Of a stretch of 5,244 bases of DNA, positions 1 to 5,244 are shown in pieces. The translations under genes were made by a program, and so were the position numbers. Source of the DNA: a virus (lineage: Duplodnaviria > Heunggongvirae > Uroviricota > Caudoviricetes); the IMG/VR virus record IMGVR_UViG_2703718777_000003, positions 1 through 5,244 of that record. One strand, 5' to 3'. A model generated the notes under the pieces. That model did not search any database. It was not told where the DNA came from and saw only the letters and a program-made list of their open reading frames with translations. Within the stretch, counting starts at the first letter, position 1, and each line of letters begins with the position of its first letter.

Positions 1-144
1 CAGTACCAGCACCTGAATCCGCGATTATCCCATATACCTACTCGCTGATTGCCCCTCCGCACAGGGGGATTCACCATGCCAGTTTCTTTTAACAAACTCC
101 CCGCAAACCAGACAACAGTCAACCGCCTGAATTGTGAGACATTT

Positions 145-170
145 AAAAAAAAGGCCCGCAAAAGCGAGCC
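145..170 (-). terminator. Intrinsic terminator immediately downstream of the tRNA-like gene
   Basis: On the minus-strand RNA: 7-bp GC-rich stem (GGCUCGC/GCGGGCC, one G-U pair) with UUUU loop (plus 153-170), followed by an 8-U run (plus 145-152 is AAAAAAAA). On the plus strand the stem has a C-A mismatch and no T-run, so it is minus-specific. Confidence 0.6.
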
Positions 171-184
171 AGGGAAAATAAGTG

Positions 185-260
185 TGGCGCGTTGTACTGG
201 ATTCGAACCAGCGACCTGGCGATTATGCGTCGCTCGCTCTCACCACTGAGCTAAAGGGCC
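185..260 (-). tRNA. tRNA-Ile2/Met-like (anticodon CAU) gene, possibly a pseudogene: cloverleaf body intact, acceptor 3' strand non-complementary
   Basis: Reverse complement of 185-260 reads GGCCCTT-TA-GCTC-AGTGGTGA-GAGC-G-AGCGA-CGCATAA-TCGCC-AGGTC-GCTGG-TTCGAAT-CCAGT-ACAACGC-G-CCA. D-arm, anticodon arm and T-arm (GGTTCGAATCC) are canonical and the 5' two-thirds resembles E. coli ileX as I remember it. But the 5' acceptor strand GGCCCTT cannot pair with the 3' strand ACAACGC (2 of 7 pairs), and position 33 is G rather than the near-universal U. Encoded CCA is present. Confidence 0.55.
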
Positions 261-269
261 GGGAGCAGA

Positions 270-298
270 ATAATAACGGTCCGTAATTAATTCCGCAA
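270..298 (-). promoter_or_regulatory. Candidate sigma70 promoter for the tRNA-like gene
   Basis: Minus strand TTGCGG (298-293), 17-nt spacer, TATTAT (275-270); the -10 lies about 10 nt upstream of the tRNA 5' end at 260. The -35 is weak (3/6). Sequence-only prediction. Confidence 0.3.
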
Positions 299-322
299 TA
301 AAAAACCCGCTCAATGGCGGGT
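296..322 (-). terminator. Intrinsic terminator downstream of the ORF6N gene
   Basis: Minus-strand hairpin ACCCGC-CATTGA-GCGGGT (plus 305-322) followed by TTTTTTATT (plus 296-304). The plus strand lacks a T-run after the stem. Confidence 0.6.
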
Positions 323-418
323 TCTGGTAAAGTTCATGCGCTTGGTTCGCCTCGCGATACAGCTTTGCGAAGCATACAGGAATTGAAGCAGTTTATGTGC
401 AAAAATGCAAGAACTTTT

Positions 419-1000
419 TTAAAGCTGCATCAACCTTTCCACCAGTTTATCTCTGCGAACAACAAACCAACCATTGGCTCTCGCCAGTTCCAGCCATGAC
501 TCAAGGGAAATAACAATATCATCATCCCGTAACTGAATTGTGGAAACAGTGACACCGCCTCTCTGATAACAGAGAACTCGCGTGTCGTAACTTTTCTGGC
601 ATGAAACTGGCGCTGACGGATCCTTTTGTCTGAAATAGCAGTCTTCCAGCTTTTCGAACACATCCCACGCCTGATCGGTTTCCAGCATTTTGGCATGACG
701 GGCTGCTCCGCGTTCTGTCCAGAGGATGAGGGAGCGGGCTTTCGGGGAAATTTGTAACCCTCTTAAAGATGGTTGCAAATTTTGTGAGTAGTTTAAAGCT
801 ACCCGCAAATTTTTCAGGGCATCGCCAGCCACTTTGAAAAAATGCTTTCCTTCAATAAAGCGCTCAGCATTTCTGGCGTAGTTATTTTGAATGTTCTTAA
901 CTCCAGCACCGTACAACTGCGCCAAAAGTTCGGTGGTAATAACAGGAATCTGGTTATGGGTGATCGGGGAGAGAGTTTCAACAGAAATTTGAGTTGTCAT
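419..1000 (-). CDS. ORF6N-domain protein (phage antirepressor-like, DNA-binding N-terminal domain; C-terminal about 90 aa unassigned)
   Basis: 193-aa ORF with ATG at 1000-998 and SD GAGGG 7 nt upstream (AGAGGGCGTCATT-ATG); stop TAA at 421-419. The N-terminal region (ITTELLAQLYGAGVKNIQNNYARNAERFIEGKHFFKV ... ISPKARSLILWTERGAARHAKMLETDQAWDVFEKL) fits the ORF6N pattern (L-YG...N..RN..RF.EG..FF ... tErGa) from memory, not from a search. Confidence 0.8.
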   Translation of the reverse strand: MTTQISVETLSPITHNQIPVITTELLAQLYGAGVKNIQNNYARNAERFIEGKHFFKVAGDALKNLRVALNYSQNLQPSLRGLQISPKARSLILWTERGAARHAKMLETDQAWDVFEKLEDCYFRQKDPSAPVSCQKSYDTRVLCYQRGGVTVSTIQLRDDDIVISLESWLELARANGWFVVRRDKLVERLMQL

Positions 1001-1011
1001 AATGACGCCCT

Positions 1012-1116
1012 CTGGTGGTTTCTAAACCATCACCACCGTCAGGTTCCTAATCATCGGGTGGTGAGACGTACAGGGTTAGGAACTACCGGGAAACCAACCG
1101 GCGAGCTTTTCAGCTC
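1012..1116 (-). repeat. Repeat-rich structured leader: nested inverted repeats with pseudoknot-type topology plus a GAAA-tetraloop hairpin
   Basis: Plus-strand arms: TCACCACC 1030-1037 with GGTGGTGA 1057-1064; GTTCCTAA 1043-1050 with TTAGGAAC 1076-1083 (interleaved S1a-S2a-S1b-S2b); GGTGGTTT 1014-1021 with AAACCATCACC 1025-1035 abutting the SD; GAGCT-TTTC-AGCTC 1103-1116 (GAAA loop on the minus RNA). Confidence 0.5.
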
Positions 1117-1160
1117 CCCCATACGCCCCACCATAATTCAGATGTGCGCGTGCATACGAC

Positions 1161-1186
1161 AATAAAAAACACGCTCGCGGCGTGTG
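1161..1186 (-). terminator. tR'-like intrinsic terminator downstream of the Q-adjacent promoter
   Basis: Minus-strand RNA has a 6-bp GC-rich stem (ACACGC/GCGTGT, plus 1169-1185) with a 5-nt loop, followed by UUUUUUAUU (plus 1161-1169). It lies about 80 nt downstream of the predicted start site. Confidence 0.55.
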
Positions 1187-1247
1187 TCTGTCGCGGTCTC
1201 TATCCGGGGTTCCTAATCCCGACGCCAGATTTTGCTGGCGCGTGAGG

Positions 1248-1277
1248 AATATAGCCCCGGATAACAGATTGAGTCAA
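1248..1277 (-). promoter_or_regulatory. pR'-like late promoter; the -35 overlaps the Q stop codon
   Basis: Minus strand TTGACT (1277-1272), the same -35 hexamer I recall for lambda pR', then a 17-nt spacer to CTATAT or 18-nt to TATATT (1254-1248). The Q TGA stop (1276-1274) lies inside the -35. A short GC hairpin (CGCCAG/CTGGCG, 1222-1241) sits in the initial transcribed region. Confidence 0.5.
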
Positions 1278-1828
1278 CAGACAGTTTTTAAATACCCGGA
1301 AGAGAATGCATCACGCATCGGCAGATAGAGCATATATTCAGCAAGATTTAGCCATACATCTACCCGACTGCAGCACGTCCGAAAACACCACTCAGGGTGT
1401 GCATCATTTAGCAATTCAGCCATTTTGCGCTTACTCATCCCCCGCCCTTCATATCTTTGCCGGAGGATACAAATCAATCCTGGGTGTTCTGCCAGCACTT
1501 CACTAATCACCCGATCAATGCATAACGCCTCTGCATCAGTACAATGCACCAGCCAGCTTTTTTGCTTGCCGTTGATCATATCCCGCAAAAAAGCCTCAAG
1601 TTCAGGTTTGTCCAGACCTGCTTTTTTCATCCTCCGGAGCGCCTCATTAATTGCCGTTTTTGTTAGCTTTTTAGAGGTCAGCAACTGGTTAAACATATTT
1701 CCCGTCTTACCGCCGCCAATATACGACCAGCGCCCCCACATACGTAGTTTTCCCTGAATCCAGACACTTTCCAGCGTGGTGAGACGAAGGTGTTCTCCGC
1801 TTTTTCCTGTATTCGTTGGGTAAATCAT
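1274..1828 (-). CDS. Putative late-gene antitermination protein Q (lambdoid Q-like, 184 aa)
   Basis: ATG at 1828-1826 preceded by a strong SD (GGAGAAAGGAGGGATATTT-ATG). The start overlaps the upstream gene's stop as ATGA. The protein has a WGRW segment and C-terminal Cys cluster (EWCFRTCCSR) resembling Q21-type antiterminators from memory. Position after the DUF1364-like gene and directly before a promoter/terminator pair is the classic Q context. Confidence 0.65.
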   Translation of the reverse strand: MIYPTNTGKSGEHLRLTTLESVWIQGKLRMWGRWSYIGGGKTGNMFNQLLTSKKLTKTAINEALRRMKKAGLDKPELEAFLRDMINGKQKSWLVHCTDAEALCIDRVISEVLAEHPGLICILRQRYEGRGMSKRKMAELLNDAHPEWCFRTCCSRVDVWLNLAEYMLYLPMRDAFSSGYLKTVC

Positions 1829-2115
1829 AAATATCCCTCCTTTCTCCAGATTTCTTGTGTGCGAAAAACACCTTCTGCATGCATCAGGCGTAATTCTTCT
1901 TTGGTGTAATCGCCGGTTTTTACCCGCCCGTCGATTAAATCGTGGCACGAGCTACAGGCAATCGCTGCCTGCATATCGTGTGGCTTTATCGCTGTTCCGC
2001 ACGTTCCCGCCAGTCGGTAATGCGCCAGCACAGACGTTTCGGGATTGTGATTGCAGTAGCCAGGGATTCTGACCTGGCACATCTGGCCCCGCGCTGCTTT
2101 ACGTAAATCCACCAT
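1825..2115 (-). CDS. DUF1364-family protein (YbcO-like putative nuclease with Cys/His metal-binding motif)
   Basis: 96-aa ORF MVDLRKAARGQMCQVRIPGYCNHNPETSVLAHYRLAG...IACSSCHDLIDGR, closely matching my recollection of E. coli DLP12 YbcO. ATG at 2115-2113 with SD GGAG 8 nt upstream; overlaps the upstream stop (TAATG) and the downstream start (ATGA). Confidence 0.85.
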   Translation of the reverse strand: MVDLRKAARGQMCQVRIPGYCNHNPETSVLAHYRLAGTCGTAIKPHDMQAAIACSSCHDLIDGRVKTGDYTKEELRLMHAEGVFRTQEIWRKEGYL

Positions 2116-2714
2116 TACGCAAACTCCAGCAGCTGCGCGGCCACATTTTCGACTTCCTCCAAAGAGGAGAATTTACGGAACAGGATCCAGTTCCACAGCA
2201 CATTCAGTACAGATTTATAAACCTGCTGAAACTCGGTTTCGTCCATGTTCGCAAATGCGATAGATTTTGCCCTGCGCCCACGACTACCGTCCGGATAAAA
2301 ATGTTCGGTGTAAAATCCGGCCTGAATGGTTACCCATTCGCGAAAAGCGTCAAAGGACTTGAGTAAGGCCGTATCCCGGGTTCTGCAAGTCGTAACGGTG
2401 TTAAGGTATTGCTCTGCGGCATCACTCAGGGCTGGCGTATGTTCCCGACCTACTGATTCGCACAGGAAATCAACGAAACCGGACACCAGTTCTCGTTCGC
2501 GAGGCGTGATCGCCCCACCGTTCGGAGTCCAGTAATCGAATCCCAGTTGCAGGAGTTTGAAAAAACGCTTGTGGAACGCGTAGTTACGCACTCGCTTAAA
2601 GTCCGCGTGTATCCACTCACCTATTTTGATTTGATGCAAAAAATCGCAACTCTCCGGCGTCGCCGGGAGAAGTAATCCGGAAGAGGTTTGTTTGACCAGT
2701 TGTATATGCGCCAT
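2115..2714 (-). CDS. nin-region protein, probably DUF1367 family (199 aa)
   Basis: Long ORF with ATG at 2714-2712 and SD GGAG 9 nt upstream (GGAGACAGCA-ATG). The ORF-track start at 2726 is a TTG codon. Stop overlaps the next gene's start. Family name comes from the remembered DUF1367/DUF1364 pairing in lambdoid prophages, not from a search. Confidence 0.75.
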   Translation of the reverse strand: MAHIQLVKQTSSGLLLPATPESCDFLHQIKIGEWIHADFKRVRNYAFHKRFFKLLQLGFDYWTPNGGAITPRERELVSGFVDFLCESVGREHTPALSDAAEQYLNTVTTCRTRDTALLKSFDAFREWVTIQAGFYTEHFYPDGSRGRRAKSIAFANMDETEFQQVYKSVLNVLWNWILFRKFSSLEEVENVAAQLLEFA

Positions 2715-2773
2715 TGCTGTCTCCAATGGCGCTGTAGGTTGCCAGTTGTTCAGGCTGGCTTACGAATTATAAC

Positions 2774-2947
2774 TCATTCCCGAATCACCTTGAAACCGAG
2801 CCTTTCAAGATATTCAATGAATGCCTCGATAGATAAAATTACATGATTATCAGGGATTAACGTTGCGTAGATAACTTCCCCATTCTCAACGCGCACAGCA
2901 TAGAGGCCATTTTCACTAAAAATTTCACGCAATTCTTCGATTTTCAT
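2774..2947 (-). CDS. Small hypothetical protein (57 aa), not in the supplied ORF track
   Basis: Hand translation of the minus strand gives MKIEELREIFSENGLYAVRVENGEVIYATLIPDNHVILSIEAFIEYLERLGFKVIRE. ATG at 2947-2945 with SD GGAAGGA 8 nt upstream; TGA at 2776-2774. It sits about 75 nt downstream of a predicted promoter and 59 nt upstream of the DUF1367-like gene. Confidence 0.55.
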   Translation of the reverse strand: MKIEELREIFSENGLYAVRVENGEVIYATLIPDNHVILSIEAFIEYLERLGFKVIRE

Positions 2948-3028
2948 CAACAGAATCCTTCCAGATAAATAGCACTCCCCTGCTCGGGGTCCATCCCTCT
3001 TCTCCCTGCGCGCTACTTAAGTGCATCG

Positions 3029-3056
3029 ATTCTAGTCAGGCATACCCGCTTATCAA
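3029..3056 (-). promoter_or_regulatory. Candidate sigma70 promoter for the small ORF/DUF1367/DUF1364/Q operon
   Basis: Minus strand TTGATA (3056-3051), 16-nt spacer, TAGAAT (3034-3029), located just downstream of the bidirectional terminator. Sequence-only prediction. Confidence 0.4.
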
Positions 3057-3109
3057 CAAACGAAGGTCGGTTTAGTGGAGGAATCGGCTAAAACTTGATC
3101 TGTTAAAGT

Positions 3110-3136
3110 AAAAAACCCGCCGAAGCGGGTTTTTTG
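3110..3136. terminator. Bidirectional intrinsic terminator
   Basis: AAAAAACCCGC-CGAA-GCGGGTTTTTT: a perfect 6-bp stem with 4-nt loop, flanked by A6 on one side and T6 on the other, so a hairpin plus U-run is formed on either strand. Sits 5 nt after the nuclease gene stop. Confidence 0.7.
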
Positions 3137-3140
3137 TATA

Positions 3141-3626
3141 TTACATACTCTCAATGTCATTTTTTAGTGAGTGCTTGTGTAACTCCATGGAGTAATCAAC
3201 ATCACGAAGAGTTTTTTCAATCTGCTTGTTCCCAATAAAAGGTTTATCTTCAGGGTTACCCCAACAGCAATTCCCCTTGGGCCATCCATGTACTTTCCGT
3301 ACTCTTCCGTTAACAACGTGAAGTAATCCCCAGCCGGGTGGTAAATCCTCAATTGAAATAATTCCCGGCTCACTAATAAAGAATCGCCAGTCGCCCATTC
3401 CAAGAGACGGATTTTTACGAAAACGCTTTTTTCTATCTGCCAACAAGTCAGCACGAGAACATTTCGCCTCTATCAGGCATGATGCTGAATTTCTGAATCC
3501 CATAGCATCTGGCTGTTCTCCGGTACTGGTTACAGCTATAAAGCGGTCATGAAAACAAACCTTGAACCCGTTGCGCTTAAGGAACTTGTACGCAATCTGA
3601 CAGAGTTCGCGGTGTGTTAACGCCAT
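3141..3626 (-). CDS. PD-(D/E)xK nuclease-fold protein, Hjc-like (archaeal-type Holliday-junction-resolvase-like core) with a C-terminal extension of about 80 aa
   Basis: 161 aa from ATG 3626-3624 with SD AAGGAGAG (the ORF-track start at 3656 is TTG). Motif order HRELCQIAYKFLKRNGF ... QPDAMGF ... CLIEAKCS matches the E...PD...(E)xK catalytic core. Start lies 1 nt after the Ead/Ea22-like stop (TGA-T-ATG). Confidence 0.8.
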   Translation of the reverse strand: MALTHRELCQIAYKFLKRNGFKVCFHDRFIAVTSTGEQPDAMGFRNSASCLIEAKCSRADLLADRKKRFRKNPSLGMGDWRFFISEPGIISIEDLPPGWGLLHVVNGRVRKVHGWPKGNCCWGNPEDKPFIGNKQIEKTLRDVDYSMELHKHSLKNDIESM

Positions 3627-3627
3627 A

Positions 3628-4575
3628 TCACTCTCCTTTGATGCGAATGCCAGCAAGCCAGTTTCTTATGCCGATATATTCAGCGTTCCTGAAACCGCTT
3701 TTTACATATATAAATGGCAAGCGAAGATTGTGACCATTGACTGCCAGGTAGTCTTTACAACCCTGTTCGGTGAAACAGCAGGTAACGAATTCATCAATAT
3801 CTTTCACAGCAACGCGCCGCCATTTTTCTGGTGGCTCTCGAAAGTTTTCATGAAGTAGCTCGAGACGACGACTATGGCGTTTATTGGCTTCATTGCCATC
3901 TTCGTCAACCCAGACAATCCGGTCATGGTCATAATCAGCATCAACAACGATTTCGCGCTTTTGATACACACAAAACATGGGATCTGACGTTATTCGATTG
4001 TCCTGTGTTCGAATATTTTCACCGATGATGCCAAACGAATCTGGTGCAGATTTTGTCTGCATCTCTTCGATACGTTCAGCCATCGCAGCACACTCTTCAA
4101 AGTTGCTTAATGCTTTTCGCTCCCATTCGGCGCATTGTTTTTCCAGTTCTGCTATGCGCTTACTTCCATCCGCGATTACTCCCTCGTAATATTCACGCTG
4201 CTCGTTGAGTTTTGATTTTGCTGCTTCAAGCTCAACGCGCAGCTTCCCTACCGTAAGCGCAATATCCTCGTTCTCCTGGTCGCGGCGTTTGATGTATTGC
4301 TGGTTTCTTTCCCGTTCATCCAGAAGCGCCAGCGCAACATTTGGATTAAAGGCAGCAATAAATTCAGCGTTTGCATAAGCCTGAACATCTGTTTCAACCA
4401 GGCAGTTAACATGACATTCTGCAATTACGCCACCGGGTTCTCCTTTCCATTTTTGACAAACAAAAACTCCTGTTATATTCCCATGCTGATTGCCCGATGT
4501 ATGCCCTACGATGTAGCATCCTTTAGTTGCTTTCTCTGCTGCTTCACGCAGCGCCTGATAGTCAATCTCGCTCAT
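3628..4575 (-). CDS. Ead/Ea22-like family protein (conserved N-terminal domain, central coiled-coil, divergent C-terminal domain)
   Basis: 315-aa ORF. N-terminus MSEIDYQALREAAEKATKG... resembles Ead/Ea22-like prophage proteins from memory; the centre is heptad-like and charged (ELEAAKSKLNEQREYYEGVIADGSKRIAELEKQCAEWERKAL). ATG at 4575-4573 overlaps the upstream TGA as ATGA. Confidence 0.8.
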   Translation of the reverse strand: MSEIDYQALREAAEKATKGCYIVGHTSGNQHGNITGVFVCQKWKGEPGGVIAECHVNCLVETDVQAYANAEFIAAFNPNVALALLDERERNQQYIKRRDQENEDIALTVGKLRVELEAAKSKLNEQREYYEGVIADGSKRIAELEKQCAEWERKALSNFEECAAMAERIEEMQTKSAPDSFGIIGENIRTQDNRITSDPMFCVYQKREIVVDADYDHDRIVWVDEDGNEANKRHSRRLELLHENFREPPEKWRRVAVKDIDEFVTCCFTEQGCKDYLAVNGHNLRLPFIYVKSGFRNAEYIGIRNWLAGIRIKGE

Positions 4576-4748
4576 TCATCGCCCCACTCATCACAATATG
4601 CTTCGACCGCAGTTTTCCCTGCTTCATAATCATCACGCCATGCTTCAGCATCAGCGGCACTTCCACCGCGTAACTCTGCATAATCCATTAACAGTTCATG
4701 CCATTCTTCAAAACTGGCGTTATATTTAGTTGAACCAAAATCAGCCAT
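4572..4748 (-). CDS. Small hyperacidic hypothetical protein (58 aa)
   Basis: MADFGSTKYNASFEEWHELLMDYAELRGGSAADAEAWRDDYEAGKTAVEAYCDEWGDE, with ATG at 4748-4746 and a strong SD (GAGGAAGGA, 4 nt spacing). About 16 Asp/Glu against 4 Lys/Arg, and W/Y-rich. Overlaps the upstream gene's end by 8 nt and the downstream start by 4 nt. Confidence 0.7.
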   Translation of the reverse strand: MADFGSTKYNASFEEWHELLMDYAELRGGSAADAEAWRDDYEAGKTAVEAYCDEWGDE

Positions 4749-4923
4749 TTTGTCCTTCCTCTTCATCTTTTATTTCGTGGTATGAGTAATTGCAGTGGTT
4801 AAAGAAAATTTCTTTTGCTTCGTCATGAATTTCATCAGGTGTTGCGTCATCATCTACTTCGAATACATCCTCAAAATCTCCACCAGCTATTCCCGTTTCA
4901 ATAATTATTTTGAATTTTCGCAT
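4741..4923 (-). CDS. Small hyperacidic hypothetical protein (60 aa)
   Basis: MRKFKIIIETGIAGGDFEDVFEVDDDATPDEIHDEAKEIFFNHCNYSYHEIKDEEEGQNG, with ATG at 4923-4921. 18 Asp/Glu against 5 Lys/Arg. Its own SD is weak, but a short upstream ORF with a strong SD overlaps its start. Confidence 0.65.
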   Translation of the reverse strand: MRKFKIIIETGIAGGDFEDVFEVDDDATPDEIHDEAKEIFFNHCNYSYHEIKDEEEGQNG

Positions 4924-5016
4924 TTCACTACCGCCATTTCGAACGGCCTCCTGATGTTCTGAGGGTGCAGAAATCCCTCCGGTTAAGGATTAAATTTTTA
5001 ACAGTGCTAAATTTAA

Positions 5017-5244
5017 TTATTCAGTTCTTGATTTTGCCGCCCTGCGTATCCGCGCTTTCGCGTTACGCTCAATCTGAATTAGCTTTTCTATATTTTTCCG
5101 CCTTTCCTGTTCCTCCTGTCGCAATAGCCTTACGTCATCTGCCAGTCTGGTTTCTCTTTTCGCCACAGAGAGCATCCAGTCAAACGGCTCCACAACTGCA
5201 CCGCAGATTTTACAACGGACCTGACGCTCTTTTTCGTCAACCCG
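5017..5244 (-). CDS. Hypothetical protein, 5'-truncated by the window edge (CxxC motif, basic coiled-coil-like C-terminus)
   Basis: Open minus-strand frame from the window edge to TAA at 5019-5017: ...RVDEKERQVRCKICGAVVEPFDWMLSVAKRETRLADDVRLLRQEEQERRKNIEKLIQIERNAKARIRRAAKSRTE. No in-window start, so it is absent from the ORF track. Confidence 0.5.
   Translation of the reverse strand, partial: RVDEKERQVRCKICGAVVEPFDWMLSVAKRETRLADDVRLLRQEEQERRKNIEKLIQIERNAKARIRRAAKSRTE

Follow-up and report, generated by a model that had tools for sequence, protein, structure and literature searches.

In this study, we analysed two small overlapping genes, open reading frames (ORFs) A and B, in a 5,244-nucleotide (nt) stretch of Caudoviricetes DNA (positions 1 to 5,244 of IMG/VR virus record IMGVR_UViG_2703718777_000003), which we refer to as the window and whose bases 4400-5244 are identical to Escherichia coli strain 61_150228. 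A and B are real genes under purifying selection, and they are unrelated small genes that move independently and have become a fixed overlapping pair in the lambdoid prophages of E. coli. The pair is ordinary prophage cargo that roughly one in three complete E. coli genomes contains, and its two families were already catalogued. The main new point is that B is not restricted to lambdoid phages, being shared with virulent Ackermannviridae, several types of prophage and IncI2 plasmids. We consider it quite possible, although somewhat short of an even chance, that A and B are made early and, being acidic, occlude a basic surface of some protein of the host or of a rival element.

Two constrained genes for hyperacidic proteins

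The protein encoded by ORF A, MRKFKIIIETGIAGGDFEDVFEVDDDATPDEIHDEAKEIFFNHCNYSYHEIKDEEEGQNG, has 18 aspartate or glutamate residues and 5 lysine or arginine residues, giving it a net charge of -13 and an isoelectric point (pI) of 4.2, as well as 7 aromatic residues. The ORF B protein in its 58-residue form, MADFGSTKYNASFEEWHELLMDYAELRGGSAADAEAWRDDYEAGKTAVEAYCDEWGDE, starts at the ATG at position 4748 and has a net charge of -12, a pI of 4.05 and 9 aromatic residues. The longest frame for ORF B has 64 codons (4572-4766, minus strand); the 58-residue form is that annotated by RefSeq (WP_000753052.1), and its MADF start is kept throughout the B family. The charge per residue, -0.217 in A and -0.207 in B, stands out against the 46 annotated coding sequences of the matching prophage, the next most acidic of which has -0.075, and a random 59-residue protein drawn with the composition of that prophage's proteome reaches a net charge of -12 or lower with a probability of 0.002. 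Variation is mostly at third codon positions in both genes, with ratios of nonsynonymous to synonymous polymorphism (pN/pS) of 0.089 for A (45 distinct DNA alleles) and 0.137 for B (41 distinct DNA alleles). These values bear out the preliminary description of the window, made from its sequence alone, in which two hyperacidic, aromatic-rich mini-ORFs had been recognised here.

The conserved start of ORF A is that of the 60-residue form: in 155 of 158 loci there is no open frame for the N-terminal extension with which some databases list an 87-residue protein, and no codon-position bias was seen in the region upstream of ORF A. A 10-codon mini-ORF that overlaps the ORF A start was treated as a chance occurrence because it is present in only 17 of the 158 loci.

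Contrary to the preliminary description, in which neither sequence was recognised as a named family, both proteins could be assigned. ORF A is a full-length and plain member of the Pfam family DUF7167 (PF23768), from which it differs in nothing (E = 3.5e-14, 53.1 bits against a gathering cut-off of 24.4, positions 1-60 of 60), as well as of phrog_1997 (E = 1.4e-30), and the gene identical to it bears the RefSeq name 'DUF7167 family protein'; a literature search for DUF7167 returned no paper mentioning the family. ORF B matched phrog_519 (E = 5.7e-21 over residues 1-58), an uncharacterised phage protein family of 261 sequences (PMC9409062) that takes in the Ackermannviridae copies we recovered by tblastn. 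An exhaustive search of 1.84 billion proteins with the B profile identified 76 cluster representatives at E <= 0.001, nearly all of which are stand-alone proteins of 48-70 residues. Two very long matches, of 4322 and 768 residues, consisted of repeated short stretches and were judged to be low-complexity matches, and no member of the B family bore a name that points to a function or was genuinely fused to another domain. A 'DUF5419' label carried by the B homolog of Morganella phage Mecenats66 could not be reproduced, as none of seven B homologs, including the Mecenats66 copy, matched that model, which was touched by only one of 33 diverged B members (E = 0.02).

Among those 33 members, which have 29-78% identity to the window protein, the net charge has a median of -10 and a range of -4 to -15, acidic residues occupy 11 alignment columns in 70% or more of the sequences, and six aromatic positions are conserved (F13, W16, W37, Y41, Y/W51 and W55). 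The A-like proteins of Klebsiella phages have net charges of -11 to -12. Strong acidity is thus conserved in each of the two families.

Other searches returned little. At E <= 0.1, hmmscan against Pfam gave for A only DUF7167 and a sub-threshold match to AnkX_ins, and for B nothing; neither protein matched the anti-restriction families Ocr, ArdA or KlcA, nor did A match the T7 Gp2 family. A scan of A, B and their neighbours against NCBIfam gave nothing, no PADLOC defence-protein model matched A, B or four neighbouring proteins, and sequence and profile searches of the PDB with A, B and their family alignments identified no significant relative. Profile searches thus placed neither protein in a characterised family with a non-defence function. 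Homology to lambda Orf55, Ea8.5, Orf61, Orf63, Orf60a, Orf73 and Xis was rejected (all E > 0.3 by phmmer and blastp against an eight-sequence database), and an hhalign comparison with lambda Orf55 likewise found nothing. A and B are also not homologous to each other.

The AlphaFold2 (AF2) model of ORF A comprises a beta-beta-alpha-beta domain with a disordered acidic tail and that of ORF B a generic three-helix bundle, each with a predicted local distance difference test (pLDDT) score of 72. The predicted fold of A weakly resembles those of T7 Gp2 and T4 Dmd.

Separability and spread of A and B over mobile elements

In genomes close to the window, 158 of 159 IMG/VR loci have A next to B, and their overlap of 8 nt is identical in all 157 related loci in which it was measurable. 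An overlap of 4 nt between B and its next gene, whatever that gene is, was found in ~100 of 109 distinct contexts. The gene in question is Ea22-like in only ~8 of the 109, and in ~90 of them a different protein, MSEINYQEGHETAGQAKPVAWRYRY..., follows B. All the genes downstream of B start with MSEI(N/D)YQ (positions 4555-4575 in the window; loci L004-L162) and then diverge completely, their bodies being Ea22-like, a 119-171-residue 'EGHETAGQAKPVAWRYRY' protein or others. BLAST matches in several phages also stop at this point, and the seven shared codons look like a recombination joint for the swapping of gene modules. Therefore, although the Ea22-like gene overlaps B in the window, it is no constant partner of B.

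The overlapping reading frames noted in the preliminary description, of A with B by 8 nt and of B with the Ea22-like gene by ATGA, are as described there. The stoichiometric co-expression of A, B and Ea22 that had been concluded from them does not hold, given the few contexts in which an Ea22-like gene follows B and the occurrence of B without A and of A without B. A trio is unsupported because A and B separate from each other and from Ea22 in distant genomes, and in E. coli two autonomous modules have become linked in a lineage-specific way. An obligate stoichiometric complex, with A and B as subunits or chaperones of Ea22, would suit the overlap of three frames and the constancy of the A-B neighbourhood in close loci, but tight overlaps are the norm among all neighbours in such gene arrays, most contexts have an unrelated body behind the shared start, neither A nor Ea22 accompanies B in plasmids, Ackermannviridae, one prophage of the P2 type and the prophages of Proteus and Oligella, and A is found without B. 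Such a complex is already largely refuted by this separability, and we regard it as highly improbable.

The range of elements that carry B without A is broad. Among GenBank phages it was identified in 196, the majority of them virulent Ackermannviridae (for instance Vi01, Det7, ECML-4 and Menlow), where the major head gene is followed by an array of small genes that includes B. A P2-like prophage of Scandinavium has B behind a P2 gpA-like replication gene, and B is also present in Serratia and in a Thiotrichaceae metagenome-assembled genome. An Oligella prophage has the order YqaJ-RecT-x-SSB-B-DUF551 genes-xis-int (SSB, single-stranded DNA-binding protein), and a Proteus prophage the order RecT-YqaJ-SSB-(x)-B-small genes-Dam or MT-A70-Exc-Int. 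A Halomonas prophage has a cI-like repressor and a zeta toxin followed by B, with SSB and RdgC genes farther downstream; in Pectobacterium, DnaT and lambda-P-like genes and then small genes precede B; in Morganella phage Mecenats66, B is two genes before rdgC; and in Sulfuricurvum it lies in a small-gene array beside a topoisomerase of plasmid or integrative and conjugative element (ICE) type. In each of these settings B is part of an array of small early or accessory genes, and it recurs just after RecT/YqaJ/SSB modules or after replication genes. Methylase genes of the Dam or MT-A70 kind also occur in these arrays. From this gene order, B is a widely travelled early accessory gene, typically at the start of the array that follows a recombination or replication module.

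B without A was also found on 554 plasmids, 516 of them conjugative and most of them IncI2. A B copy with ~85% identity is carried by ~413 plasmids; all of those listed are 55-66 kb in length, and the one examined is an IncI2 plasmid with mcr-1. On the mcr-1-bearing IncI2 plasmid pS2.14-2 (locus L170, 1090-1474), a DUF1187 gene comes before the B homolog (WP_000753050.1) and overlaps it by 8 nt in the geometry seen for A and B. Their operon has a CaiF/GrlA-type regulator at its start and later SPFH and NfeD genes, followed by type IV secretion genes. DUF1187, which takes the place of A upstream of B on the IncI2 plasmids, is unrelated to A. A DUF1187 gene also adjoins xisR in the Rac-type prophage of strain 61_150228.

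Counterparts of A without B were identified in Klebsiella prophages, where they are flanked by Ea22-like and TraR/Orf73-like genes, and in the virulent Guernseyvirinae Klebsiella phage VLCpiS11a, which encodes a 56-residue A-like protein with a net charge of -11 (locus L175, 2501-2671). The A-like gene of VLCpiS11a overlaps the start of a 454-residue exonuclease gene and has a gene for a Gp2.5-like SSB/annealing protein nearby, an arrangement that recalls genes 5.9 and 6 of T7. A general link between A and exonuclease genes was rejected, as the association is confined to this one small lineage.

Junctions, leader and genomic setting

The coordinates of the two genes, their junctions and the adjoining features are collected in Table 1.

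Table 1. Location of ORFs A and B and of the features adjoining them (positions are those of the window)
Feature	Position	Strand	Description
Ead/Ea22-like gene	3628..4575	minus	315 residues; PF13935, E = 4.9e-45
ORF B	4572..4748	minus	58-residue hyperacidic protein; phrog_519, no Pfam family
B stop/Ea22-like start overlap	4572..4575	minus	ATGA; read from sequence
ORF A	4741..4923	minus	60-residue hyperacidic protein; DUF7167 / phrog_1997
A stop/B start overlap	4741..4748	minus	ATGGCTGA; 8 nt, read from sequence
Shine-Dalgarno-like sequence	4753..4761	minus	GAGGAAGGA; within A, at its 3' end, with the B ATG 5 nt downstream
Non-coding leader upstream of A	4924..5016	minus	AGGAGG and a potential GC hairpin before the A ATG

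The sequence GAGGAAGGA may act as the Shine-Dalgarno site of ORF B. Upstream of ORF A, an AGGAGG at 4947-4952 lies 23 nt from the ATG and is too distant for a normal Shine-Dalgarno site. Between the two there is a potential hairpin with a GAAA loop (~4930-4945), which reads CCGCCC-GAAA-GGGCGG in most alleles and is weaker in the allele of the window; if formed, it could bring the AGGAGG close to the ATG. A conserved structure was nevertheless rejected, as the covariation did not exceed that of the controls: the stem was 88.6% paired over 15 alleles, with one compensatory variant, which was not above the shuffle control, and the fold of the window allele had a z of 0.56. A simple consensus scan of 4400-5244 identified no sigma-70-type promoter-like or intrinsic-terminator-like site on the strand of the genes, and a scan with Rfam at the gathering threshold of each family identified no RNA family in the interval of A and B.

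In strain 61_150228, the pair is located in a Rac-type prophage at ttcA, where replication genes and several DUF genes precede A and B and are followed, after the pair, by DUF1367, DUF1364 and a DUF1133 Q-like gene. Downstream of the pair in the window, Pfam matches give the order DUF1367, YbcO and DUF1133/antiterminator-Q, which places the pair among the nin-type accessory genes of the early-right operon. In the window it thus lies in a variable region of early accessory genes that separates the replication genes from the Q-like antiterminator. The early accessory operon proposed in the preliminary description thus agrees with both the downstream gene order and the outcome of the promoter and terminator scan. 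The location is not the same in all phages, as the Shiga toxin (Stx) phage ArgO145 has the same block in its early-left exo-xis region, with int on one side and the genes for the exonuclease and RecT on the other. A search of 5,426 complete E. coli genomes for the 352-nt pair at >=80% coverage identified it in 1,750 (~32%), with up to 4 copies per genome.

Several other features of the window were recorded. The Ea22-like gene is overlapped at its 3' end, by 29 nt, by a gene for a 171-residue basic protein (3141-3656, minus strand; pI 9.1), which has strong matches to phrog_9263 and phrog_631, a weak match to a PHROG named 'DNA repair protein' (E = 0.003) and no Pfam match; this gene is missing in strain 61_150228, whose prophage region is identical in other respects. 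On the minus strand, Rfam matches to isrK (1164-1241), the C4 antisense RNA (1054-1138) and the a1/b1 target (1201-1254) lie directly upstream of an ORF6N-domain antirepressor-like gene (ORF 419-1000, minus strand). Together these resemble a c4-ant immunity module of the P1/P7 type that lies shortly downstream of the Q-like gene, in an arrangement that we take to be like that of IsrK and AnrP in Salmonella. At the edge of the window (1-254, minus strand) there are a tRNA gene (195-254) and a partial Rfam match to the small RNA STnc100 (1-108), and in strain 61_150228 the Q-like gene is followed by one gene for tRNA-Ile and two for tRNA-Arg, which is also the case in Stx-type prophages.

Possible functions and likeness to known systems

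A and B are small, negatively charged cytoplasmic proteins, predicted to be folded, and are expressed from the early operons of elements that need to gain a foothold in a newly entered cell. If they are inhibitors, each would bind a positively charged surface of a host or competitor protein. The surface occluded would probably be one that binds nucleic acid, and A and B would then act as competitive inhibitors, a class that includes the DNA-mimic proteins, helping an incoming mobile element through counter-defence, protection from nucleases or host takeover. We infer binding, inhibition and a target alike, with RecBCD-type nucleases, type I restriction enzymes and RNA polymerase as the candidates. 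For proteins as acidic as A and B, direct binding of nucleic acid is very unlikely. The evolutionary constraint on both genes, their outlying and conserved acidity, the compact predicted folds and the spread of B over mobile elements are in favour of their being inhibitors, and a function that aids incoming DNA would accord with the presence of B in phages of temperate and of virulent lifestyle and on conjugative plasmids. Weaker support comes from the flagging of Kuttervirus members of phrog_519 as candidate anti-CRISPRs by a machine-learning tool (PMC9409062), which is the sole published functional claim for the family that our literature search identified. Similarly, B is approximately the 25th ORF from the origin of transfer (oriT) on the presumed leading side of the IncI2 plasmids, inside the zone of the first 30 leading-region ORFs that is enriched for anti-defence genes (PMC11541004). 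We count this position as weak support, because it is beyond repA and at the head of a type IV secretion operon.

A number of observations weigh against A and B being inhibitors. Small acidic uncharacterised proteins are common in phages and composition alone discriminates poorly. The confidence of both structural models is only moderate, no known DNA mimic, including Ocr and ArdA, was among the fold neighbours listed for them, and the searches identified for neither protein a sequence, profile or convincing fold similarity to a characterised inhibitor or DNA mimic. On the IncI2 plasmids, B lies 15 kb from oriT, past repA and leading into the type IV secretion genes, which is not the classic leading region, and the direction of transfer was itself deduced. 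In addition, the four accessions and DUF names that we looked for do not occur in the text supplementary files of the leading-region study (PMC11541004). A more specific proposal, that B founds a broad-host counter-defence family neutralising a DNA-binding nuclease or restriction complex of the host (RecBCD or type I restriction-modification) and that A is a second, independent inhibitor with a Gp2-like fold, is one we put forward with little confidence.

Other explanations were considered in light of the same evidence. Potentially, A and B modulate the lysis-lysogeny decision or transcription in the manner of the exo-xis proteins (Orf60a, Orf61, Orf63, Orf73/TraR and Ea22), with A binding RNA polymerase as T7 Gp2 does or as lambda Orf55 is predicted to do. 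The location of the pair within ArgO145's exo-xis region and the Ea22-like and TraR/Orf73-like genes on either side of the Klebsiella A-like genes would agree with such a role, as would the known effects of the exo-xis proteins, which influence lysogenisation and induction and several of which are predicted to act on RNA polymerase (PMC8614690). However, we detected no similarity of A or B to the lambda exo-xis proteins, and the virulent Ackermannviridae and conjugative plasmids that carry B make no lysogeny decision, which argues against a lysogeny-specific role for it; A-like genes are likewise present in virulent Guernseyvirinae. As to Gp2, the A profile and the verified T7 protein were aligned by hhalign in the same beta1-beta2-alpha register with 41% identity over 29 columns, but the alignment was not significant (probability 0.8%, P = 0.07), and the third strand of A, YSYHEIKD, has no arginine. 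Two arginines near the third strand of T7 Gp2 are required for its binding to the beta' jaw. Overall, we judge modulation of this kind to be unlikely.

It is also conceivable that B is not an inhibitor of a host protein but an accessory factor of phage recombination or replication, a partner or regulator of SSB, RecT, RdgC or the exonuclease. This is an explanation of its place directly or nearly after YqaJ-RecT-SSB in the Oligella and Proteus prophages, near SSB and RdgC genes in the Halomonas prophage and Mecenats66, after the gpA-like gene in Scandinavium and after replication genes in E. coli and Pectobacterium, and the overlap of the A-like gene with the exonuclease gene in VLCpiS11a would be in keeping with it. 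Yet the accessory region begins after the recombination or replication module, and the adjacency may thus be positional; B follows the major head gene in Ackermannviridae and is beside regulator, SPFH and NfeD genes on IncI2 plasmids, and the connection of A with an exonuclease is limited to a single small lineage. We consider an accessory factor of this kind unlikely. The frequent proximity of B to RecT, exonuclease and SSB genes, which recalls gam-bet-exo, abc-erf and T7 5.9-6, keeps a role directed at a nuclease such as RecBCD or accessory to recombination in play. The preliminary description had looked to Ocr and ArdA, and A, B or both could be DNA mimics of that type that inhibit type I restriction-modification enzymes. 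The extreme and conserved acidity is as expected of such proteins, B is carried by phages and conjugative plasmids as are ArdA, KlcA and Ocr-type genes, and neither ArdA nor KlcA is in the (incomplete) gene table of one IncI2 plasmid. Against this, neither protein has an anti-restriction match in Pfam or a sequence relative in the PDB, Ocr and ArdA are missing from the listed fold neighbours, and a monomer of 58-60 residues is far shorter than the Ocr and ArdA subunits. The dimers of Ocr and ArdA present elongated surfaces and have ~117-166 residues per subunit. Mimics of the Ocr or ArdA type seem quite improbable.

The A-B pair is a reasonable candidate for screening, chiefly through the distribution of B over kinds of mobile element. 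Ackermannviridae are used in phage therapy, and colistin resistance through mcr-1 is spread on the IncI2 backbone. Should B indeed neutralise a nuclease or defence of the host, widely differing mobile elements would share a small factor that aids their establishment, and the catalogues of anti-defence proteins would gain a new family; if it does not, A and B remain two more small acidic uncharacterised proteins.

Comparison with known systems gives both likenesses and differences. T7 Gp2, the inhibitor of host RNA polymerase, has a net charge of approximately -5 (counted from its sequence) compared with -13 for ORF A, in addition to the arginines near its third strand that A lacks, and complete inhibition of RNA polymerase would be harmful to lambdoid phages because they depend on the enzyme of the host. 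The lambda exo-xis proteins (Orf60a, Orf63, Orf61, Orf73, Ea8.5 and Orf55) share the niche of A and B, that of small early genes around ea22, and although no sequence relationship to them was detected, the ArgO145 pair is located in the exo-xis region itself. For Ocr, ArdA, phi29 p56, T7 Gp5.9 and lambda Gam, no sequence or profile similarity to A or B was identified and none is among the listed fold neighbours, but like A and B they are small and strongly negatively charged, are expressed early and are carried by phages or plasmids. By analogy, A and B would functionally resemble these small acidic inhibitors of mobile elements, and just as gp5.9, Gam and Abc2 adjoin recombination genes, B is often found beside the genes for RecT, exonuclease and SSB.

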